NCBI GenBank assembly: GCA_035063765.1
Contig: JAPSFT010000011.1
Span: 64,854 to 128,853, forward strand
Source: Deltaproteobacteria bacterium
GTDB taxonomy: Bacteria > Myxococcota_A > UBA9160 > PR03
Reading direction: 5' to 3'
DNA: 64,000 nucleotides
The notes under the pieces are model-generated. The model searched no databases and had not been told where the DNA came from. It saw only the letters and a list, made by a program, of their open reading frames with translations. Positions 48,013-64,000 of the stretch are shown here, in pieces. The translations under genes and the position numbers were made by a program. Within the stretch, counting starts at the first letter, position 1. Each line of letters begins with the position of its first letter.

Positions 48013-49359
48013 CTACCGTCGCCCACCACGGGCCCTTAGCTCAGCGGTCAGAGCACCCGGCTCATAACCGGTGTCGTCCCTGGTTCGAATCCAGGAGGGC
48101 CCACCCGTAACACCGCGTAGTTTCTTGAGTTCAATCCTCGGACCCTTGTCGCCAGGTTGTCGCCAACCCGGCTTCGGCGGTCGAAGCACCTCGACGAGTG
48201 CATTGTCGGCGAGACGCGCGTAGCGGCGCGTCGACTGGATCGACGCGTGGCCGAGGAAGCGCTGCAGGTGCCGCTCCGGAACGCCGCGGCGGATCGCGTC
48301 GGTCGCCATCGTGTGCTTCGTGCCTTCGTAGAGCGAGACGTGCGGGAGGTCGGCTGCCTCCAGCGCTGCGGCCCAGACGCGCTGGAGCGCCTTGTGCGGC
48401 CACATCCGGCCGGTGCGTGGGTTGGGGAATAGGGGCTTTCTAGAGAAGCGGCCCGCCGGGTCGACGTGCCGATCGATCCAACCGGCGAGCTCCCGGCTGA
48501 CCGGCAGCCGTTTCGGCTTTCCGGTTTTCGTGCCGCGGATCTCGGCGCCGACGGACTTCGACTCGGCGGCCTTGTCGACGAAGAGCCAGCCGTCCCGGTA
48601 GTCCGCGACCGTGAGCGCCCGCGCCTCGCCGGGCCGCAGCCCGAGATGCGCGAGCGCGAGGAAGATCCCGCGATCCGCGTCCGGGATGTGCGCCACCGCC
48701 GCGTCCTGATCCGTGATCGAGAGGATCCGCGGCTCGTGCTCCTCGACGCGCACGGGCGGCACGCGTGGCGCCTTCGGAATCTCGCCGCGCAGCTCCAGCC
48801 AGCGCAGGAACGAGCGCATGTAGCCGAGGAAGTTCCGCCGCGACTTCGGGCTCTGCTTGCGGTCCGCGAGCCAGAGGCTCCAGTCCTCAAGTGTCCCGTA
48901 GGTCACCTCGTAGATCGAGATGCGGTCGAAGAACGAGAAGTGCCCGCCGGGAGCCGCAAGCCGCTCGAGCTCCCGCACGAAGTTCGGTGAAAGCGAGCCG
49001 GCAGCCATCTCGCGGCGGCGCAGCTCGAGCCAGCGCGCGAGCCAGGTCGGCACGAGGTTGGTCGGTGAGCCGGTCGGCTGGTAGCGCGCCAGCACCACCT
49101 CGACCGACACCCCCTCGGCGACCTCGTCGCGGATCCGGTCGAGCAACCGCTGCGCCGTCGCCTCGTCCGTGATGCGGATCCCGCGGTTCGACCACACCCG
49201 CCCGACCGGCCGGAAGTCCAGGTAGAACTCCCGCACACCGTCCTCGCCGCGCGAGCGGCTCCGGATGCGCCCGAGCTTCGCCACGAGGGCCCAGCGTACC
49301 GCAGGGGCGGCAGCGGCCGGCGAGGCGAGGAGCCGGGCGAGGGAAGCCACGTCAGGCAT
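48013..49359 (-). CDS. int: Tyrosine recombinase / phage-type integrase
   Basis: In frame 48013..49461 I start at ATG 49359 (MPDVASLARLL...). Catalytic-domain blocks are LALAHLGLRPGEARAL (Arg), GTKHTMATDAIRRG and FLGHASIQSTRRYARL (His...Tyr). The ORF continues antisense through the whole tRNA gene before its stop. Confidence 0.85.
   Translation of the reverse strand: MPDVASLARLLASPAAAAPAVRWALVAKLGRIRSRSRGEDGVREFYLDFRPVGRVWSNRGIRITDEATAQRLLDRIRDEVAEGVSVEVVLARYQPTGSPTNLVPTWLARWLELRRREMAAGSLSPNFVRELERLAAPGGHFSFFDRISIYEVTYGTLEDWSLWLADRKQSPKSRRNFLGYMRSFLRWLELRGEIPKAPRVPPVRVEEHEPRILSITDQDAAVAHIPDADRGIFLALAHLGLRPGEARALTVADYRDGWLFVDKAAESKSVGAEIRGTKTGKPKRLPVSRELAGWIDRHVDPAGRFSRKPLFPNPRTGRMWPHKALQRVWAAALEAADLPHVSLYEGTKHTMATDAIRRGVPERHLQRFLGHASIQSTRRYARLADNALVEVLRPPKPGWRQPGDKGPRIELKKLRGVTGGPSWIRTRDDTGYEPGALTAELRARGGRR
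48030..48103 (+). tRNA. tRNA with CAT anticodon (elongator Met, or Ile2 if lysidine-modified)
   Basis: Manual cloverleaf: acceptor GGGCCCT/AGGGCCC, D arm GCTC-AGCGGTCA-GAGC, anticodon arm CCCGG-CTCATAA-CCGGT, T arm CCTGG-TTCGAAT-CCAGG, discriminator A. CCA is not encoded. By my fold the variable region is 6 nt, which needs checking. Confidence 0.85.
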
Positions 49360-50429
49360 TCCCGCGCGCTTCGGTCGGCGTCTCGGCCATGGCTTCCCCT
49401 CATGCGGGGAGGCGCTGTTGGAGAGAGCAAGTGCGGTGCCAGCGCTCCGGATCGGGCGCATCCCTGCAAGTCCGCGCGCTCACGGCGGTTCGCATTGGCT
49501 GCGGTCACGACCGGGTCCGGGGATGGCTCGCAGTCTCCAACCAAACGCCGCCAGCGTGTGGCTGGCGCACGAACTCCGGATCGATCGCGGGAGGCGCGAC
49601 TGCCGTCGCTCAGCCGCAAGCGGTGCCGACCGCCTGCGGCCCAGCTACCGACGGAGGCGCCGAAATCGGGCCCGGAGTGCAGGAGTCCTGCAGCGACTCT
49701 GCAGGGGCAGCGTTCAGCTTCCTTGCGGACATCGCTCCGCCGAGCGGCCTTCGCGGGAACCGACACCGCGCAGAGCGCAGGCGGAGGATTCCTCCGCCAC
49801 GTCTCGAGTACTCCCTCGCATTCCCGAGGGCGTACAGGGACTTCCGCGAATCCCTCCGTCACTTATCTTGCATTCGCACCGATACCTGCGACTTCTGTCC
49901 CTCTCTCCACATCCAGCCTGCCGAACGCTGCGTCGACGAGTTCGATACCCGCCCGACGCGCTTCCGCGGCGCTGCAGCCGATCGACACTTCGCGATCCAA
50001 GGTGCTGCAGAGGCGCTACCAACCAGGTGCCGTGGAGCTGTGTCGGGGCTTCCATTCGCCCAGCCGCGTAACAGCGCGGGCCATGATCAAGACCGGTTCC
50101 AAACTGGGCCAAGATGGCCCACGAACGCGATCATGGCCCATGAAATGTCGAGCAGTGGCGGGCTCTTCTGGGGAAGTGGACCGCCTTTATCTTGCGCTCG
50201 CATCGTTCCTTCGACGCACTCCTGCAGAGCCTCTGATCCCACGTCACCATGCGCGGACGCGCTGCGATGGCGCCGCCCATCGGCTCGCCAAGTGACGTGC
50301 GGTCCGTCTGCAGCAGAGGCTCGACGCGAGGCGCAGTCGCGGTCGGCAACCTGGTCGTGCCATGATCCCGCCGCGCAGCCGCTCTTCCGCCGGGGACGCG
50401 CGTCGAGATGGAGTGATCCGGGTCTGTCG

Positions 50430-54044: not shown

Positions 54045-55571
54045 GTGAAGCGGGTACTTCTCGCATGGTTGGGTCGAACCGACCTCGACTGCGCACGTGC
54101 GAATCGCCCGGCATCGCCGGGGCCGACCGCGAGCGTGATCGAAGCGCGCACCTTTGACGAACTGGTGCTGCTCTCGAACTATCCCCGCGAGGAGTCAGCG
54201 GACTATGTGCGTTGGCTTCAGGAGCGGGGAAGCCCGCGAGTGCATCTGCTGACATCGGACCTGGGCGATCCGACGGACTACAGCGGCATCCACGACGCAG
54301 TTCTTCACTCCATGGAGTTCGTGGAACGAGAGCTCGGACCCGATGCCGAGCTCGCGATCCACATCAGCCCAGGAACACCCGCTATGCAAGCGGTCTGGGT
54401 GCTTCTGGCCAAGACCCGCTTCCCCGCTGAGTTGATCCAGTCGCACGAGAAGACGGGCGTCCGGACGGTCTCGATCCCGTTCGATATCTCCGCCGAGTAC
54501 GTGCCGGATGTGTTGCGGCGCACCGACGAGAAGCTCCAACGCCTCAGCGATGGGCTGCCGCCCGAGGCGCCCGAGTTCGATCAGATCATTCGACGGAGCC
54601 CGGCGATGGAACGTGCCGTGGCCCGCGCCCGCCTGGTAGCACCGCGAAACGTTCCTGTGCTGATCGAGGGAGAGTCGGGCACTGGCAAGGAACTCTTCGC
54701 GCGGGCCATTCATGCGTCCAGCCCTAGGTCCTCCGGTCCGTTCGAGGCGGTGAACTGCGGAGCACTTCCTCGCGAGCTCGTGGAGTCCTTGCTGTTCGGG
54801 CACGAAAGGGGGGCGTTCACTGGCGCAACTCAGCAGCACAAGGGCCACTTCGAGGTGGCGAGCGGTGGCACGCTCTTTCTCGATGAAGTCGGTGAACTTC
54901 CGCTGGATGCGCAGGTCAAGCTGCTGAGAGTTCTACAGGAACGACAGGTTCGGCGTATGGGTTCGGATCGCACGATTTCGGTCGATGTGAGGATCATCGC
55001 AGCGACCAACCGGAATCTCCTTGAGGAAGCGGCAGCCGGCCGCTTCCGTGAGGACCTCTATCACCGGCTCGCAGTAGGTGTGATTCGGCTTCCTGCGCTT
55101 CGCGACCGCCAAGGCGATCTCAGCTTGCTGATCGAGCGCCTGCTCGAGCGGATCAACCAGGAGGCGGCCTCCCAGCCGGGCTACGCACACAAGGAACTCT
55201 CTCCTGCCGCAAGAAGTCTTCTGATCGCCCACTCGTGGCCCGGTAACGTGCGAGAACTCCAGAACACGCTGCTACGACTGTCGATTTGGACCTCGGGCCC
55301 GCGGATCGGAGTCGATGACGTCCGAGAGGAGCTCCTGCAAGTCGGGTCTGGATCGAGATCGGACCTGCTCGGCCGGCCGCTCGGAGAGGGGCTGCAAGTT
55401 CGCGATCTCGTGGCAGAATTGGCCCGCCACTACATCGAGCGTGCCCTCCAGGAGGCTGGGGGCAACAAGACGCGAGCTGCCAAGCTACTCGGTATGGCGA
55501 GTTACCAGACCCTCACGGACTGGATGAAGAGATACGGGATCAAGCTGCCCAGGAAGAGGCGGGAAGGGTGA
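54045..55571 (+). CDS. Sigma-54-dependent transcriptional activator with RtcR-like (CARF-type) N-terminal sensor domain
   Basis: 508-aa ORF with a GTG start and GAGAAGG about 8 nt upstream. The N-domain begins [14 protein letters not shown] and contains [30 protein letters not shown]. As I remember it, E. coli RtcR has ...IHITTGTHVAQICWFLLAEARYLPARLIQS. The AAA+ core has [25 protein letters not shown] and FLDEVGEL. The C-terminus is a Fis-type HTH ([25 protein letters not shown]). Confidence 0.85.
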
Positions 55572-55587
55572 CGGCACGGGGATTGCT
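55572..55587 (+). promoter_or_regulatory. Candidate sigma-54 (-24/-12) promoter upstream of hsdR
   Basis: The sequence CGGCACGGGGATTGCT begins one nt after the activator stop codon. Against the consensus TGGCACG-N4-TTGCW, only the first T is replaced. The GG and GC dinucleotides have canonical spacing. The site is about 58 nt upstream of the hsdR GTG (55645), which itself has GGAG 8 nt upstream. Confidence 0.65.
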
Positions 55588-55644
55588 CCAGAGGCTCCGC
55601 GAGCCCCTTATGGCACATCGCATCCGGGGGCCGGAGCCCTATTC

Positions 55645-58600
55645 GTGCCCTTGGACCATCTCCCGCCGAGTCCGTGGAACCCGATACTCCGAGACGGCCG
55701 CGAGGGCCACGTCTTGGTGAAGTCGATCAACTTCGAGTTCCTGCGAGCAAAACGCACCTACCTGGCCGACCTGGGCGGCTTCGCCGAGCAGTACCTCCAT
55801 CCCGATCCCGCGAGTGCACTGATCAAGCTCCGCACCTTCGCGGAGGCGATGACGAACGACCTTTACACCGCATTGGGCCTCCGCCAGCCCTTCGAGGCCG
55901 ACTTCTTCACCCTTCTGGACGGCCAGCCGTTCAAAGACGCTGTTCCTCAGGTGGTGCTGACGAAGATCCACGCCGTCCGAAAGCTTGGGAACAAGGCGGC
56001 CCACGGCGGCGCCGTCAGCTTCGATATGGCGGGGCGTGCCCTCCACGAGGCCTACCACCTCGGCAGCTGGCTTCACCTCGCCGTGGACAAGGGCTCCCAG
56101 AGCGATTGCCCGAAGTTCACGGTGCCTCCCGCTGGCGGTGTTGCAGAGTCGACCCGGGCTGACCTGAAGCGTGAGAAGAAGGCAGCGCTTGAGAAGCTGG
56201 CCGCCCAGGAAGCACAGATGGAGAAGCTCCTCTCGGAGCTTGACGCGGCCCGCGCGAAAGCCGAGTCCGCCGAAAAGTCTGCGCAGGAGCTCCAGCTCAT
56301 CATTCAGTCCGGCCAGCAGGCCGCGAGCGAGCTCTCCTTCAGCGAAGCCGAGACCCGAAAGTTCCTCGTCGAGACCATGCTGGTCGCGGCTGGCTGGGAT
56401 GTCGGAGCCGCGGGCAAGAGCACCACGGACGTCGGCCAGGAGGTGGACGTCGAGCACCAACCGACGGAGACAGGGCACGGCAAGGCGGATTACGTCCTTT
56501 GGGACGACGCCAGCAGGCCCCTTGCCGTTGTCGAAGTCAAGAAGACCTCGATTGAGGCCGCTTTGGGCCGCCACCAGGCCCGCCTCTACGCCGATGGCCT
56601 CGAGCAGATGTACGGCCAGCGTCCGGTGATCTTTTACACGAATGGCTTCGACCTCTACCTGTGGGACGATGCCCAGAACGAGGTCGATCGCAAGATCTAC
56701 GGCTTCTACTCGAAGGACAGCCTCGCCTACCTGCACTTCCAGCGTGCCAGCCGCGTCCCTCTCCACGAGGTACCCATCAGTCGAGAGATTGCAGGACGCC
56801 TGTACCAGGTGGAGGCCGTGAAGCGCGTCGGCGAGCGCTTCGACCAGGGACGCCGCAGGGCGTTGATCGTACAGGCCACAGGCACGGGCAAGACCCGCGT
56901 CGCGGCATCGCTCGCCGATGTCTTGCTGCGAGCCAACCGGGCCAAGCGGATCCTGTTTCTCTGCGACCGCCGCGAGCTTCGCAAACAGGCCCTGAACACC
57001 TTTAAGCAGCTCCTCCCGAACGCCAAGCGGGTATCGGTCACCGCCAAGACCGCCCAGGAGCGCGAGCACCAGATCTACCTGGCCACCTATCCGGCGATGA
57101 GGACCTGCTTTGAGAGCTTCGACGTGGGCTTCTTCGACCTGGTGATCGCCGACGAGTCGCACCGCAGCATCTACAACCGCTACAAGGACCTCTTCGACTA
57201 CTTCGACGCGCTCCAGGTGGGGCTCACGGCCACGCCGGTGCGCTTCATCGACCGCAACACCTATGACCTCTTCGGCTGCGAGGATCAGGACCCCACCGCG
57301 CACTACCCCCTCGATCGCGCCATCGACGAGGGCGTTCTCCTCCCCTTCCGCGTGCGGGCGTATCAGACCGAGTTCCAGCGCAAGGGCATGAAATGGAAGG
57401 AGATGAGCGAGTCCCAGCGGGCTCAGCTCGAGCAGCAGATGGCGAATGCAGAGAGCTTCGACTACGAGGCCGCAGAGCTCGACCGCTACGTCTTCAACAA
57501 GGACACCAACCGCGCGATGCTCCGCAAACTGATGGAGAGCGGCATCCGCGACGCAACCGGCCAAGCGCCCGGCAAGTCCATCGTCTTCGCCCGCAGCCAC
57601 CGCCACGCCATCCTGCTGAAGGAGCTTTTCGACGAGCTCTATCCGCAGTACGGCGGAAGTTTCTGCACCGTGATCGACAACTACGACCCGCGCGCCGAGC
57701 AACTGATCGACGACTTCAAGGGCCAGGGCCAGCACAACGACATCCAGATCGCGATCTCGGTCGACATGCTCGACACCGGCATCGACGTCCCCGAGATCGT
57801 GAACCTGGTCTTCGCGAAGCCCGTCAAGTCCTACGTCAAGTTCTGGCAGATGATCGGGCGCGGAACCCGCAGGTGCGAGAACCTCTTCGGCCCGGGTGAG
57901 CACAAGAAGGAGTTCCTCGTCTTCGACCACTGGGGCAACTTCGAGTTCTTCGGCGAGACCTACGTCGAACCGACGCCGTCGCCTCGCAAGTCGCTGCTGC
58001 ACCAGCTCTTCGAGGCCCGCGTGGAGCTGGCCGAGGCCGCGCTTCACCGGCCTGATCTGCCCACCTTCGAGGCGGTGATCGAGCTCCTGCGCCAGGACAT
58101 CGCGAGCCTCCAGGACACGGGCACCATCGCGGTGCGCGACGCATGGCGGACCCTCAAGAAGGTTGCCGACGCCCAGATCCTCAAGCAGTTCGACCCGGCC
58201 ACCCGGGCGGCCCTCCTACAGGAGGTCGCACCGTTGATGAAGGAGCGCGACATCCGCGGCCACGTCGAGGCCCACGAGTTCGATCTCCTTGTGACGCGCC
58301 TCCAGCGGGCGCAGATCACGGGCTCGAGCGAGCTCCAGGACCTGAAGGGCGACCTGCTGAACGCCCTCGCCCAGCTCAAGATGAACCTCGCTCAGGTAAA
58401 GGCCAAGGCCCAGACCATTGCCCACGTGAAGAGCGTCGCCTTTTGGGCCGAGCCGACCTTCGGCGCGCTGGAGGAGGCCCGGCTCGAGTTGCGGTCCATC
58501 ATGAAGTTGCGCGAGCGCCCTGCGGGTCCGGCCGACTACGCCCAGCTAGTCGATATCGCGGAGGACCTCTCGCTCGTCCGCGACGCCGACTACCCCGTCA

Positions 58601-59133
58601 AGATCGAGGGGCTCGATCAGGTGGGCTACCGCAAGCGCGTCGAGCAGGTGCTGCGCGACCTCGTCGCCAGCAATGGGACGCTGCAGAAGATCAAGGCCGG
58701 CCAGCCTGTGACCTCCCATGACCTCGACGATCTGGTGAGCCTCGTGCTCACCCAGAACCCCGATGTCGATCTCGCCAAGCTCGAGCAGCTCTATCCCAAG
58801 ACCGCGGGGCACCTCGACCTGGCGATCCGCCGTGTCATCGGCCTCGACGCGGATGCCGTCGAGAAGCGCTTCGAAGCGTTCGTCCACCAGCACCAGGCGC
58901 TCAATGCGCGCCAGGTGCGCTTCCTGAGCCTCCTCAAGAGCCTGATCGCGAGCGCCGGCAGCATCGAACTCGAGCGCCTTTACGAGCCGCCCTTCACGAC
59001 GCTCGATCCCGACGGCATCGATGGGCTCTTCGAAGACGAGGCTCAGATCGACGAGCTTCTCGGCCTCATCGCCAGCTTCGAGAATCCCGAACCCATCCCG
59101 GCCAACCCCGGTCCCGAAGGTCTCCATTCATGA
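55645..59133 (+). CDS. hsdR: Type I restriction enzyme R subunit with N-terminal DUF4145-like domain and coiled coil
   Basis: 1162-aa ORF. Its elements are:
- a DUF4145-like block ([17 protein letters not shown])
- a coiled coil (about residues 170-230)
- the PD-(D/E)xK nuclease ([10 protein letters not shown]...LAVVEVKK)
- SF2 motifs [23 protein letters not shown] and QMIGRGTR
- a long helical C-terminal region like the EcoEI-type R C-terminus. Confidence 0.9.
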
Positions 59134-60686
59134 TCACCGGCAAGCTCCGCAGTCAGATCGACAACCTCTGGACCCAGTTCTGGACCGGCGGCATAACAAA
59201 TCCGCTCACGGTCATCGAGCAGATCTCCTTCCTGATGTTCGCCCGCCTGCTCGACATCCGGGAGACGCGCGAAGAGCGCGTCTTCACTCGCAAGCACCGC
59301 GGCGAGGCTTTTCCCGGGAATCTCTTCGGGCCCGACAAGCAGCACCTACGCTGGTCGAAGTTCAAGCACGAGGGCGATGCCGCGCGCATGCTTGCCCTCG
59401 TTCGCGACGAGCTCTTCGCGCACATTCGTGCCGTCGCAGAGAAGCAGGATCGCCTGGGCGAGCACATGAAGGATGCCCAGCTCATCATCTCGAAGCCCAG
59501 TCTGCTCTACGCCGCCGTGAAGCTGATCGATGAGCTGCCGCTGGGCGAGGGCGACACCAAGGGCGATCTCTACGAGTACCTGCTCAGCAAACTCACCACG
59601 GCGGGCATCAACGGCCAGTTCCGCACGCCGCGCCACATCATCGACGTCATGGTGGCAATGGTGGACCCGAAGCCCACTGAGAAGGTGGGGGACCCGGCAG
59701 CCGGCACGGCGGGCTTCCTCGTGCAGACGATGCAGTACCTGCTGCGCAAGTACTCGTCGGCGGAGGGTCAGTTCCCGGCCGAGGGCGAGGACGGGCGGCC
59801 GGTGCTCGGCGACGATGGCAAGTCCGTCATGGTCTACACGGGCGACCTCCTCGAGCCGTACCGCGACCACATCCAGAAGGGGATGTTTTACGGCTTCGAT
59901 TTCGACGTCACGATGCTCCGCATCGCAGCTATGAACCTGATGCTCCACGACGTCGCCAACCCGCACATCTACTATCAGGACACGCTCAGTCGCGGTTTTC
60001 GTGAAACGCGCCCCGAACTCGCCGAGAACCACTTCGACGTCATCCTCGCTAACCCGCCGTTCAAGGGCAGCCTGGACGCCGAGGACATCGACCCAACCCT
60101 CACAGCCAAGATCAAGACCAAGAAGACAGAGCTGCTTTTCCTGGTCCTCATGCTCCGCATGCTGAAGAACCCTGGCGGCCGCGCCGCGGTGATCGTGCCC
60201 GAGGGCGTGCTGTTCGGCAGTTCGAATGCGCACGTTGCGCTTCGACAGATGCTGGTAGAAGAGAACCAGCTAGAGGCGGTGATCTCGCTTCCGTCTGGTG
60301 TGTTCAAGCCCTATGCGGGGGTCTCTACTGCGATCCTGGTCTTCACTCGCGGCGGCGAGACGACTGACGTCTTCTTCTACGACGTGCGCGCAGATGGGTT
60401 CTCCTTAGACGACAAGCGCGAACGCGTTGCAGGCGACGATCTGCCCGACTGCTTGTCGCGATGGCAACAGCGCAATGAGATCGGCCTTGGTGACCGTGCA
60501 GCGCAGTGTTTCTCAGTGATGGCTAACGAGATTCGCTCATCTAGCTACAGGCTTTCGTTCGCCGAATACAAAGCGACGCCCTATGTCGAACCTGACCTAG
60601 ACGACCCGACGGCATTGCTTCAGAGGCTTCGCGACCTTGAACGTGAGACTTCTGCGCGACTCGATGAGCTTGAGGACCTGCTGTGA
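59130..60686 (+). CDS. hsdM: Type I restriction-modification N6-adenine DNA methyltransferase subunit
   Basis: The ATG at 59130 overlaps the hsdR stop (ATGA). It has an HsdM N-domain ([30 protein letters not shown]), SAM binding ([13 protein letters not shown]) and the catalytic [10 protein letters not shown]. Confidence 0.95.
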
Positions 60687-61870
60687 GCACCGCCACCATC
60701 GTGCCGAGATGGCGCCCCCTGGAGGAGGTGGCGCCGACTGCATCTGAGCGTGTGCATCCGTTCACGGGTGAGAGGCGATACGTAGCAACGGGAGGGATTG
60801 ACGGGGGCGTCATCACGGACTCTGACATGGTCACGCACAGCATGAGGCCGACTCGAGCGGATCTGGCTGTAAGACCTGGCGACGTCATCTGGGCCAAAAT
60901 GAGGGCAACTACGAAGGTCTTTCACGTCGGCAAAGAGGATGCGTCGACCATCTTCTCAACCGGCTTCGTGGCGAGCCGCCCTCGGAAGGATCTAGTGCAC
61001 TCCCGCTACCTGTATCACTTTTTGAGGTCACCACTCTTTCAGCATAGGAAAGATCAGCTTTGCACGGGCTCAACGCAGAAGGCGATCACCAAGACCGGAC
61101 AAGCGAAGCTTCAATTCCCCTGGCTTCCGCTCGAGAATCAAGAGAGGGCAGCAGCGATTCTCGACCACGCGGAGGCGATTGAATCCAAAAAAAGACTCGC
61201 CATTGTGCTTGGGACCCAACTTGGGGACGCGTTGTTCCGCGAAGCGATCGCATCAGACGCAGAGGATCTCGAGATTGGCGAAATGCTACAGCGTGGAATT
61301 CTGATGCTTCATAAGGATGGCAACTTTGGAAGTGCCTACCCTCGCGCGAGAGACTTCACAGACGAAGGTGTTCCTTTTCTTACTGCAGCGAGCGTCACAG
61401 ACGAGGGGAAGCTTGAGGAGCGATCCGTTCAACGCTTGAGAGAAGAGAAGGCACAAGCTCTCCGATTCGGTTGGATCGAGAAGGGAGATGTTCTCCTCTC
61501 TCACAACGCAACGGTCGGCCGCGTCCTCTTGTATCGGGGAGAGTACAAACGCGCTTTGATCGGAACATCGCTGACTGCATTCCGACCCGATCCTAAGCGA
61601 CTGTTGCCCACCTTCCTGTTCGGTGCGTTGCGATCTTCGAGGTTCCAGGACGCTCTGAAAGCCAAGATGGCGCAAACAACAAGGAACCAGGTCCCCATAA
61701 CTGCGCAACGGCGATTGCGTCTTCCGTATGCACCAATGGGTGCTCAAGTTCGTTATGCGGAGTGCGCGAAGTCGGCAATGAGTCTCCAGCAACAGCTGGC
61801 GATTGCTCGCTTGGCCGCAGATGGCTTGCTGGCCGCATTGTCGAATCAAGCGTTCCGGGGTGCGCTCTGA
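60683..61870 (+). CDS. hsdS: Type I restriction-modification specificity subunit
   Basis: The GTG at 60683 overlaps the hsdM stop (GTGA). The 395-aa product has two variable target-recognition halves separated by helical conserved regions ([20 protein letters not shown]; [28 protein letters not shown]). This gene has the lowest G+C of the island by eye. Confidence 0.85.
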
Positions 61871-63474
61871 TGATCACCGCTCTGGAAGTCGACAACTTCA
61901 AGGGCATCGGCCGTCCGATCCGCATCGAGCTGCGCCCTATCACGCTCCTCTTCGGCCGGAACAGTGCGGGCAAGAGCACAATCCTGCACGCGCTCCACTA
62001 CGCGCACGAGATCCTGAGTCGACGGAACCTCGACCCGGACGCCACTCATCACGGAGGTGATGTCGTCGATCTGGGCGGGTTCCGGAGCTTCGTGCACGCC
62101 CAGGACACGAGCCGTGTGGTTCGCCTGCGCTTTGAACTCGACTTGACCAAGCATGAGCTCCCCGAGCTTCCAATGCTCGAGTCGGCTGCCGATGCCGACG
62201 AAGCCGAGGAGCTGCAGAGTCTGGAGCTCTTCGATGAAGGGCTGAGCACCGAGATTAGGTCCGGCTGGGTTGAGCTCCAGGTGCGGTGGAGTGGTGCGCG
62301 CAAGGCTCCGACCCTGCGCACCTATGAAGTGGGGATGAATGGCGAGGTGATCGGCCGGATCGAATCCAATGACGACGGTGCACAGGTGGATCTGTTTCCG
62401 AACCTGGCGCATCCCCTATTCGCGTACGACGGCCGGATCCCGGAGGAGGAGCGGCCGAGTCGCGAGGAGGTGGCATCGCGGTGGATCAGCGACACGCCTG
62501 GATCTGAGGCCGAGTACTGGCGCGGCCATCGCCTGCCTGTGGGTGGACTCGCGCGATCGAGCCTGCCCCGCTGGGGAGAGCTCCTCGCGCTTGACTACGA
62601 CGAGCAAGATGATTTCTACGCCTACCCGTTTCGGGAGTTTCGCTATCGCGTCTCGACGCTGATGGTGGGCCTGGGGCAGCTCCTCAAAGATGAAGTGGCA
62701 CAACTCCGGTACGTTGGGCCTATGCGTGACGTGCTCGCTCGCACGTACGCGTCTCCCCGCTACCTAGAGCCGCACCGCTGGGCGAGCGGGCTCGGTGCCT
62801 GGGATCGGATGCATACCCTTGGGCCTGAGTTCGTCGCGGGAGTGAGCGATTGGCTTTCCGACTCCGAGAAGCTCGACACGGGCTACGGCCTGGCGCTGAG
62901 GTCCTTCATCGAGCTTCCAGAGGACAGCGCACTCTGGCTCTCGATCGAGCGCGGCACATTCCTCGACATGTGGGACGATCTCGCCGCCGAGTTTCAGTCA
63001 CTCGAGAAGAGAACAGCGTTCCGCTTGGTGGACCCCACGTCCAGGATCGCCGTCCATCCCGCAGACGTCGGGGTGGGCGTCTCACAGGTCGTGCCGGTCG
63101 TGGTCGCTGCTCTCGATCCTGATCGGCCGAGCCTGACCGCAATCGAACAGCCTGAGCTCCACATTCATCCCAAGGTGCAGGTGGGGCTCGGTGATCTCTT
63201 CGCGAGCCAAATCGGAGACGGTACCCGCCGCTTCCTGCTCGAGACGCACAGCGAGCACCTGATGCTGCGATTGCTGCGGCGAATCGAGGAGACCCATTCC
63301 GGTGATCTACCGCCCGGTGCGCCAGCGCTTCGGCCTGACCAAGTGGCCGTCGTCTTCATCGAGCAGATCGAGGGGGAGGTCAAGGCGACCCAACTGCGCA
63401 TCGACGAATCGGGGGAGTTCGTCGATCGCTGGCCCCATGGCTTCTTCGAGGAGCGAGCGGAAGAGCTGCTCTGA
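61870..63474 (+). CDS. ABC/OLD-like AAA ATPase (AAA_15/21-type, DUF3696-like C-terminus) linked to the R-M operon
   Basis: The ATG at 61870 overlaps the hsdS stop (TGATG). It has Walker A LLFGRNSAGKST, then IEQPELHIHP and FLLETHSEHL (Walker B/H-loop style of OLD/ABC ATPases). The C-terminal IDESGEFVDRWPHGFFEERAEEL follows. No nuclease domain was recognised. Confidence 0.8.
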   Translation: MITALEVDNFKGIGRPIRIELRPITLLFGRNSAGKSTILHALHYAHEILSRRNLDPDATHHGGDVVDLGGFRSFVHAQDTSRVVRLRFELDLTKHELPELPMLESAADADEAEELQSLELFDEGLSTEIRSGWVELQVRWSGARKAPTLRTYEVGMNGEVIGRIESNDDGAQVDLFPNLAHPLFAYDGRIPEEERPSREEVASRWISDTPGSEAEYWRGHRLPVGGLARSSLPRWGELLALDYDEQDDFYAYPFREFRYRVSTLMVGLGQLLKDEVAQLRYVGPMRDVLARTYASPRYLEPHRWASGLGAWDRMHTLGPEFVAGVSDWLSDSEKLDTGYGLALRSFIELPEDSALWLSIERGTFLDMWDDLAAEFQSLEKRTAFRLVDPTSRIAVHPADVGVGVSQVVPVVVAALDPDRPSLTAIEQPELHIHPKVQVGLGDLFASQIGDGTRRFLLETHSEHLMLRLLRRIEETHSGDLPPGAPALRPDQVAVVFIEQIEGEVKATQLRIDESGEFVDRWPHGFFEERAEELL

Positions 63475-64000
63475 TGCTGTACGAGTTTGCGATCGAGCCG
63501 GAGTTGCTGACGAGCTGGGACAAGGCCCGCACGACCCTCAACCTCATGGGCTTCCAGCATGCGCGGGCCATCTCCGCCTACCCCTCAAGGAAGCGCTGGA
63601 AGAAGATGATCTTCGAGGCCTGTCGGAAGGCCGGCTGCGCGGATCGGGAGTTTGCGCGCATCCGCGAAAAGGTCCAGCAGTCCGACGCGAAGCTCGTCTG
63701 GGCAGGGTCGCCGGAAGAGTACGACGGATCGCTAAAGCCACAGGACGAGTGCTGGATTCGAAACGCCACTGATCGCCAGATCAAGAGGAAGGCCTTCCAT
63801 GCGATTCTGGCGACTCGAAACCCCAGCGGTCATCCCGACGTCGTGCTCGAAGCGGATGTAGACGAGTCTCACGCAAAGCTTGGAGTCGCTCGCGAGCTCC
63901 CCGTCCTGCGGCAACCGAAACCATTGGCTGGCCACATTGAGAAGCTCGTGCGCAACAGTCGTGTGCTCCTTCTCATCGACCCCCACTTCGATCCCTCGCT
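63474..64000 (+). CDS. Hypothetical protein, 5' part only (runs off window)
   Basis: The ATG at 63474 overlaps the ATPase stop (TGATG). My manual translation is open for all 175 codons to the window end (MLYEFAIEPELLTSWDKARTTLNLMGFQHARAISAYPSRKRWKKMIFEACRKAGC...LLLIDPHFDPS). It is absent from the ORF track only because no stop is reached. No family was recognised. Confidence 0.5.
   Translation, partial: MLYEFAIEPELLTSWDKARTTLNLMGFQHARAISAYPSRKRWKKMIFEACRKAGCADREFARIREKVQQSDAKLVWAGSPEEYDGSLKPQDECWIRNATDRQIKRKAFHAILATRNPSGHPDVVLEADVDESHAKLGVARELPVLRQPKPLAGHIEKLVRNSRVLLLIDPHFDPS

Follow-up and report, generated by a model that had tools for sequence, protein, structure and literature searches.

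RtcR-like proteins that combine a CARF domain, an AAA+ ATPase domain, and a helix-turn-helix (HTH) domain were described by Makarova et al. in 2014 (PMC4012209) as "not linked to Rtc... often associated with R-M systems" (R-M, restriction-modification), and sigma-54-dependent activation of the downstream genes was predicted in the same work. Superoperons of CoCoNuT, type I R-M, and Druantia systems were described by Bell et al. (2024; PMC11090510) as headed by RtcR homologues, for which a dependence on sigma-54 was likewise predicted; the word "promoter" occurs once in that paper, for hypothetical internal promoters only. The window analyzed in this study is a 64,000-nucleotide stretch of a deltaproteobacterial contig (JAPSFT010000011.1, positions 64,854 to 128,853), to which all coordinates below refer, and it carries a -24/-12 element at 55572 to 55587, between an RtcR-like activator gene and the type I restriction gene hsdR. 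Judged from its sequence and from its conservation in homologous loci, this element is very probably a functional sigma-54 promoter that belongs to a portable regulatory module heading a type I restriction/defense operon. The arrangement itself was already predicted in 2014 and 2024. Those predictions rest on gene neighborhoods, whereas here the promoter is located, its position is found to be conserved, and a candidate enhancer is proposed; the start-codon geometry of the cargo genes is a further addition. The initial annotation of this DNA had regarded a sigma-54 promoter in front of a restriction gene as unusual, but the layout is widespread in this activator family.

The activator has the same domain architecture as the R-M-associated RtcR_PspF2 regulators of PADLOC-DB, and, like these, it heads a co-directional train of type I R-M and defense genes and has no link to rtcBA. 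Compared with the CoCoNuT superoperons, the host is an organism of 74% G+C, and the cargo ends in a pair of NsnB-like ATPase genes, not in a CoCoNuT. The RtcR-rtcBA system of Escherichia coli and Salmonella (rsr-yrlBA-rtcBA) is similar in that a CARF-AAA+-HTH activator is combined with a sigma-54 promoter. The CARF domain of RtcR gates its ATPase, and the published signal, as cited by Bell et al. (PMC11090510), is a piece of tRNA that ends in a 2',3'-cyclic phosphate. E. coli rtcR and its target are, however, divergently oriented, and the promoter lies in the 188 bp of intergenic DNA between them, whereas the activator gene studied here is co-directional with its presumed target and the promoter abuts its stop codon. 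The targets are also different: rtcBA serves RNA repair, while the presumed target genes here serve DNA restriction and defense in a genome without rtcB. A further likeness is seen to the phage-shock pair PspF/pspA, in which a sigma-54 activator controls a response to stress or infection. PspF binding sites overlap its own promoter for autoregulation, which resembles the motif at the 5' end of the activator genes described below. On the other hand, PspF has no sensory domain and is controlled by PspA, whereas the present activator carries a CARF domain of its own as a fusion. The WYL regulators of defense islands (BrxR and CapW) and the C-proteins of type II R-M systems are likewise dedicated ligand- or dosage-sensing factors that head their operons, and they are sigma-70-dependent repressors or activators. 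Control in the present locus would instead operate through sigma-54 and an ATP-driven activator, with an off state that is unable to isomerize spontaneously. No experimental study of RtcR-like or sigma-54 control of type I restriction or defense operons was found in the literature searched; a paper on the Geobacter RpoN regulon was considered as a link to hsdR and set aside, because its mentions of hsdR are E. coli strain genotypes.

The activator gene (54045 to 55571, plus strand) encodes an enhancer-binding protein of 508 residues with matches to the Pfam families RtcR, Sigma54_activat, and HTH_8, which correspond to a CARF-like RtcR domain at the N terminus, a GAFTGA-bearing AAA+ domain of the sigma-54 activators, and an HTH of the Fis type. 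Walker A (GESGTGKE), GAFTGA, and Walker B are intact, and LFLDEVGEL is present. The PADLOC profile PDLC01995 (RtcR_PspF2--CARF_AAA_HTH) is matched end to end (residues 2 to 500) with 654 bits, compared with 261 bits for RtcR_PspF1 and 217 bits for RtcR, and the protein is assigned by these matches to the RtcR_PspF2 family of CARF-AAA+-HTH activators, which are linked to R-M and defense genes rather than to rtcBA. An identification as canonical RtcR was rejected: the score against the NCBIfam equivalog NF038308 is 358.7 bits at a cutoff of 650, the identity to E. coli RtcR is 35%, and the genome, which is 96% complete, yielded no RtcB. The activator is the sole RtcR-domain protein that the genome encodes. 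The sigma factor is also encoded: rpoN specifies a protein of 490 residues with region I and a standard RpoN box (ARRTVTKYR), matching PF04552 with 210 bits.

The promoter element, CGGCACGGGGATTGCT, lies on the plus strand and begins one base past the TGA of the activator gene (55569 to 55571). Its -24 element reads CGGCAC and its -12 element TTGCT; the GG doublet at 55573 to 55574 and the GC doublet at 55585 to 55586 have the canonical spacing of exactly one helical turn. Compared with TGGCACG-N4-TTGCW, the sole mismatch among the specified positions is a T-to-C change at position -26, and the near-consensus element reported in the initial annotation is therefore present, with correct GG/GC spacing. 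From the general geometry of sigma-54 promoters, in which transcription begins 11 to 13 nt downstream of the -12 C (55597 to 55599), we infer a start near 55598. A second TGGCAC at 55611 to 55616 was considered as a promoter and discarded, as it has no correctly spaced GC and is absent among the matrix matches of at least 10 bits.

The strength of the match was assessed within the source genome (4.42 Mb, 74% G+C; assembly 96% complete), in which every position was scored with a generic sigma-54 matrix. The frequencies of this matrix approximate those of the Barrios 1999 compilation, and the matrix is hence a proxy; as a control, it recovered the experimentally defined E. coli rtcBA promoter (TGGCACGACGGTTGCA) at 18.7 bits. 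The element at 55572 to 55587 scores 13.3 bits, and 79 genome positions reach at least this score, compared with approximately 62 expected under an order-3 Markov model, so that genome-wide rank alone gives weak support for a promoter. The chance of an equally good site on the right strand within the 73-nt gap between the activator stop and GTG 55645 is approximately 4e-4. Co-oriented upstream zones, which make up 3.5% of positions, hold 18 of the 79 sites, where about 2 would be expected. The exact core GGCACG-N4-TTGCT occurs 18 times in the genome (2.3 expected), and all 18 copies are placed at gene 5' ends, being either intergenic or within the first 150 nt of an over-called same-strand open reading frame (ORF). 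The comparison of matrix score with genomic background that had been suggested for this site thus has a divided outcome: the genome-wide count is not significantly above expectation, and both the upstream zones and the exact core show an excess. Position -26 is occupied by C in 9 of the 18 core sites, compared with 1.2 expected, and for this reason the C is taken as a normal variant in the source organism; conserved sigma-54-type sites linked to an integrase gene in related genomes (see below) likewise read CGGCAC.

Conservation of the element was examined in 80 loci with activator homologues (44 to 68% identity), one genome being used per species. These loci come from Vicinamibacterales and other Acidobacteriota, Geomonas, Geothermobacter, Desulfuromonadaceae (Desulfuromonadota), Chromatiaceae (Chromatiales), Steroidobacteraceae, Pseudomonas, Stutzerimonas, Marinobacter, Marinomonas, Microbulbifer, Alteromonas, Vibrio, Methylotenera, and others. 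A sigma-54 site of at least 13 bits is found within -5 to +45 nt of the activator stop codon in 67 of the 80 loci, against a background of 0.0012 per locus, and 5 further loci have such a site 107 to 325 nt downstream of the stop. In most loci, the conserved site begins 0 to 6 nt after the stop codon, and its flanks are not conserved. Cultured carriers of the module include Stutzerimonas stutzeri KOS6 (L076), Ectopseudomonas mendocina FJFQ21PNM24 (L071), Geomonas azotofigens Red51 (L026), and Marinobacter litoralis (L043). Among 60 related genomes, the activator is present in one, that of the closest relative (genome G027, locus L085), where TGGCACGCGCCTTGCT follows the activator stop at offset 0 and precedes an HsdR of 85% identity. 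This positional conservation removes chance as an explanation of the motif. Together with the encoded rpoN, the intact activator, and the enrichment of the core, it supports the sigma-54 promoter that had been proposed between the activator gene and hsdR.

The genes downstream of the promoter differ among the loci. The cargo consists of an HsdR with a DUF4145 domain, HsdM, and HsdS in about 45 loci and of an NsnB-like ATPase directly after the activator and promoter in about 25 loci of Vicinamibacterales; MoxR-VWA and VWA-kinase-MkoA-like helicase are other cargo types. A linkage of the activator to R-M or defense genes is common to about 70 of the homologous loci. A fixed activator and promoter with variable cargo therefore constitute a conserved portable unit with exchangeable defense genes. 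Second sigma-54 sites of up to 18.8 bits were observed before the second NsnB-like ATPase gene in loci L005 to L009 and L017, approximately 2.76 to 2.87 kb past the activator stop, and the closest relative has a further site at +9.19 kb, past the last operon gene; the module can therefore control several promoters.

The distance between the promoter and the cargo start codon follows a pattern. In 51 of the 69 loci with a conserved promoter, an ATG located 9 to 17 nt past the -12 C (modal distance, 13 nt) opens the long cargo ORF; examples among loci L005 to L084 are L071:7470-7510 and L005:7515-7550. Since this ATG coincides with the predicted transcription start, leaderless or near-leaderless mRNAs are implied. 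The source locus and that of its closest relative are exceptions to this layout. In gammaproteobacterial HsdR proteins, the ATG opens a conserved extension (M-D/G/S-R/K-I-x-F) before MKS.NFEF.

A candidate enhancer, or upstream activating sequence, is located inside the activator gene, at 55190 to 55223 on the plus strand. It is composed of two tandem sites 20 bp apart, CAAGGAACTCTCTC (55190 to 55203) and CAAGAAGTCTTCTG (55210 to 55223), the second of which holds the palindrome AGAAGTCTTCT at 55212 to 55222. Nowhere else in the gene is there a synonymous-site anomaly as strong as at the corresponding codons 383 to 395 and, within these, 385 to 392: A/T accounts for 57% of the third positions in 29 high-G+C loci (gene mean, 14%; next peak, 30%), and synonymous identity is 0.62 to 0.73 in 33 gammaproteobacterial loci (mean, 0.41). 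The third-position bases T9, T12, A21, and T30 are conserved across 57 nonredundant loci that range from 36 to 74% G+C. The intragenic consensus is AAGAAAcTTTCT-N8-GCAAGAAATCTTAT, with a dyad TTTCT-N9-AGAAA flanked by AAGAA and CTTMT, and it reads as two quasi-palindromic sites of the CAAGAA type 20 bp apart. The element is unique in the source genome (38 bits, compared with 10 bits for the next match) and is therefore not general to genes for enhancer-binding proteins, of which the genome encodes approximately 25. When a 14-nt matrix built solely from the intragenic copies was run upstream of the activator start codons, 30 matches were found within 130 nt, where 2.4 were expected. In Vicinamibacterales, this motif is fixed at -22 and overlaps a -10-like hexamer, TATGAT. 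These results point to the motif as the candidate DNA-binding motif of the activator, which would use the copy at 55190 to 55223 as an enhancer; the copies at the 5' end of the activator genes possibly serve autoregulation. The activator genes of Vicinamibacterales carry a sigma-70-like promoter, TTGCGT-N16-TATGAT, with the -10 hexamer approximately 7 nt before the GTG (e.g., L014:5975-6000), and their mRNA may be leaderless too.

The restriction gene hsdR probably extends from 55717 to 59133 on the plus strand (the longest ORF starts at GTG 55645), with the Pfam domains DUF4145 at its N terminus, HSDR_N, ResIII, and EcoEI_R_C. The initial annotation had described a 73-nt gap, a GGAG at 55633 to 55636, and a GTG start at 55645, and all three are present in the sequence. 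However, GTG 55645 is rejected as the hsdR start on grounds of conservation, and GTG 55717 is the likelier one: conservation with the HsdR of the closest relative starts at VKSINFEFL, encoded from GTG 55717, and the 24 codons from 55645 to 55717 are not conserved; the NCBIfam PRK11448 alignment starts at residue 27 of the long ORF. The PADLOC profile PDLC03047 (REase_I) is matched with 935 bits from residue 1 of the HsdR that starts at 55717. With a start at 55717, the GGAG at 55633 would not be the Shine-Dalgarno sequence of hsdR. The leader between the predicted transcription start (~55598) and GTG 55717 is approximately 119 nt long and contains a 36-codon ORF on the same strand (55610 to 55720, starting at ATG 55610), the TGA of which overlaps the hsdR start codon (GTGA). 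The closest relative has the same geometry, with an ATG 24 nt past the -12 C and a 34-codon ORF whose TGA overlaps the GTG; the two leader peptides are unrelated. The overlap suggests translational coupling between the leader ORF and hsdR. No RNA element other than tRNA was found in an Rfam scan of 47.5 to 64 kb (E of at most 0.1), and no unusual degree of structure is predicted for the 143-nt leader (z = -1.6), itself a prediction.

Downstream of hsdR, the genes up to the last of the train are on one strand with overlapping or abutting ends. The hsdM gene (59130 to 60686, plus strand) overlaps the hsdR stop by 4 nt and encodes a protein with the Pfam domains N6_Mtase and HsdM_N and a PADLOC MTase_I match of 550 bits. 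It is followed on the plus strand by the specificity gene hsdS (60683 to 61870; Pfam Methylase_S, PADLOC Specificity_I) and by a gene for an AAA_15/AAA_21 and DUF3696 ATPase (61762 to 63474), which resembles NsnB, PDC-M55A, and HEC-03B by domain and PADLOC matches. The last gene of the train (63474 to 64000, plus strand) continues past the window to 64409, and the contig ends at window coordinate 64690. The co-directional train as a whole reaches from a NucS-like gene at 52.3 kb to the window end at 64 kb, and neither an intrinsic terminator-like site nor a sigma-70 promoter of the E. coli type was found anywhere in it.

Another sigma-54-type site in the window, TGGCACCGCACTTGCT (49426 to 49441, minus strand), has a better score of 16.4 bits and faces the tyrosine integrase gene of the island (ORF 48013 to 49461). 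Sites of its class, TGGCAC-N5-TTGCT, occur nine times in the genome, compared with 0.58 expected. Downstream of TGGCACCGCACTTGCT are a G/C hairpin, a Shine-Dalgarno-like GAGGGGA, a 12-codon ORF, and the likely ATG of the integrase near 49357. All six loci of related genomes with integrases of 76 to 82% identity have this site in a conserved position (-79 to -83), mostly as CGGCACGGCTCTTGCTCTC, and three loci with integrases of 41 to 47% identity have it as well. A sigma-54-dependent island integrase, putative as it is here, would be unusual. The integrase relatives are without an RtcR-like activator, and a different activator must therefore serve this site.

A mechanism can be proposed for the promoter at 55572 to 55587. 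Sigma-54 holoenzyme would sit there in a closed complex until the CARF-like domain of the activator senses a ligand that relieves inhibition; RtcR, for comparison, becomes constitutive when its N-terminal part is deleted. By analogy with RtcR, an RNA fragment that ends in a 2',3'-cyclic phosphate is conceivable as this ligand, and it could come from RNA damage during infection or stress. Mitomycin C and tRNA-cleaving toxins are among the RNA-damaging stresses that induce RtcR. The activated AAA+ hexamer would then assemble on the candidate enhancer at 55190 to 55223 and contact the holoenzyme, and ATP-driven formation of the open complex would allow transcription from approximately 55598 through the leader ORF into hsdR (GTG 55717), hsdM, hsdS, and the pair of NsnB-like ATPase genes.

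Several observations weigh against this interpretation. The genome-wide count of equally scoring sites is close to expectation, and the T-to-C change at -26 departs from the consensus. No enhancer is present at the usual distance of 80 to 200 bp upstream, and no shared palindrome was found at a consistent position within 260 nt upstream of the promoter in 12 loci; the sole candidate lies approximately 360 bp upstream in coding sequence, and its two sites span a distance of about 350 to 380 nt from the promoter, which is longer than usual. No terminator was detected between the activator gene and hsdR in a scan of 51.4 to 64 kb. Read-through from upstream is therefore possible, and some transcription of hsdR may be independent of sigma-54; the initial annotation had expected strictly activator-dependent transcription with essentially no basal open-complex formation, and an hsdR that is fully silent at the basal level is accordingly not established. 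E. coli-type sigma-70 promoters were not found in the same 51.4 to 64 kb either, and that consensus has little power at 74% G+C. Finally, if HsdM and HsdS, too, were made only upon induction, HsdR would meet unmethylated host DNA, and an unmodified chromosome would have to be protected at induction by basal read-through or restriction alleviation.

An alternative explanation is that the element is a chance or decayed site, inactivated by the change at -26, and that expression of hsdRMS depends entirely on read-through from sigma-70 promoters farther upstream. The generic matrix score, which does not rise above genome-wide expectation, and the lack of a terminator between the activator gene and hsdR would fit such a history, as would the leader of approximately 119 nt in a locus where most relatives have a start codon at the predicted transcription start. 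Nevertheless, the site is at the orthologous position, at offset 0, as it is in the closest relative and close to where dozens more loci have it; the activator gene is intact; and the C at -26 recurs in half of the same-core sites and in the conserved integrase-linked sites. We therefore consider chance or decay unlikely.

A sigma-54 holoenzyme bound at the element could also act mainly as a roadblock or insulator, its stable closed complex blocking read-through from the activator gene, so that the element marks the 3' boundary of that gene more than it serves as a cargo promoter. Closed complexes of sigma-54 do not need an activator to be stable, most loci have the element directly next to the stop codon, and intrinsic terminators were not seen. 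An extra function is also hinted at by an inverted repeat that brackets the -12 element in the gammaproteobacterial loci (alignment A1, columns 7 to 12 and 19 to 24). In this repeat, 78.5% of the cells are paired, and 23 double changes are found, compared with 9.7 in shuffles, a count that none of 500 shuffles reached; the compensatory pairs include GGTCCT/AGGACC, CACCTCT/AGAGGTG, GCCAT/ATGGC, and GCCTT/AAGGC. The repeat, which is absent from the site in the source genome, may serve as an operator, form a hairpin in read-through RNA, or help melting. The placement of the cargo start codon 9 to 17 nt past the -12 C in 51 of 69 loci is, however, sensible only if transcription starts there, and several loci have another sigma-54 site in front of a second cargo gene. 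A role as a mere boundary is accordingly judged quite improbable, although roadblock and promoter functions are not mutually exclusive. That the promoter is real but fired by another of the approximately 25 enhancer-binding proteins, while the adjacent RtcR-like protein regulates something else, is the least credible alternative and hardly to be expected: enhancer-binding proteins can act in trans and the enhancer is a candidate only, but the pairing of activator and promoter is kept across phyla with changing cargo, the one related genome in 60 that has the activator also has the same promoter and operon, and a family-specific motif is conserved inside the activator gene and at its own 5' end.

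The reading of the element as the sigma-54 promoter of the restriction/defense operon is thus preferred, and a broader idea can be put forward tentatively. The RtcR_PspF2 module might be a self-contained, horizontally mobile "infection switch" whose control DNA is all contained in the activator gene, and in which an intragenic enhancer, a promoter at the stop codon of the activator gene, and leaderless cargo together insulate toxic genes, a possibility that we regard as rather doubtful in this full form. If it were true, translation would be confined to the leaderless transcripts initiated by sigma-54, and RNA that reads through from the activator gene would remain silent; in the source lineage, a coupled leader ORF would replace the leaderless layout. 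Toxic restriction or abortive-infection cargo would in this way be insulated from any basal expression. The locus bears on how bacteria silence defense systems that are costly or toxic to themselves and then turn them on when infected. The promoter with its conserved position, the start-codon geometry, and the candidate enhancer are now specific enough for direct experiments on this question, for which the source locus is a clean and well-supported example rather than a new principle.

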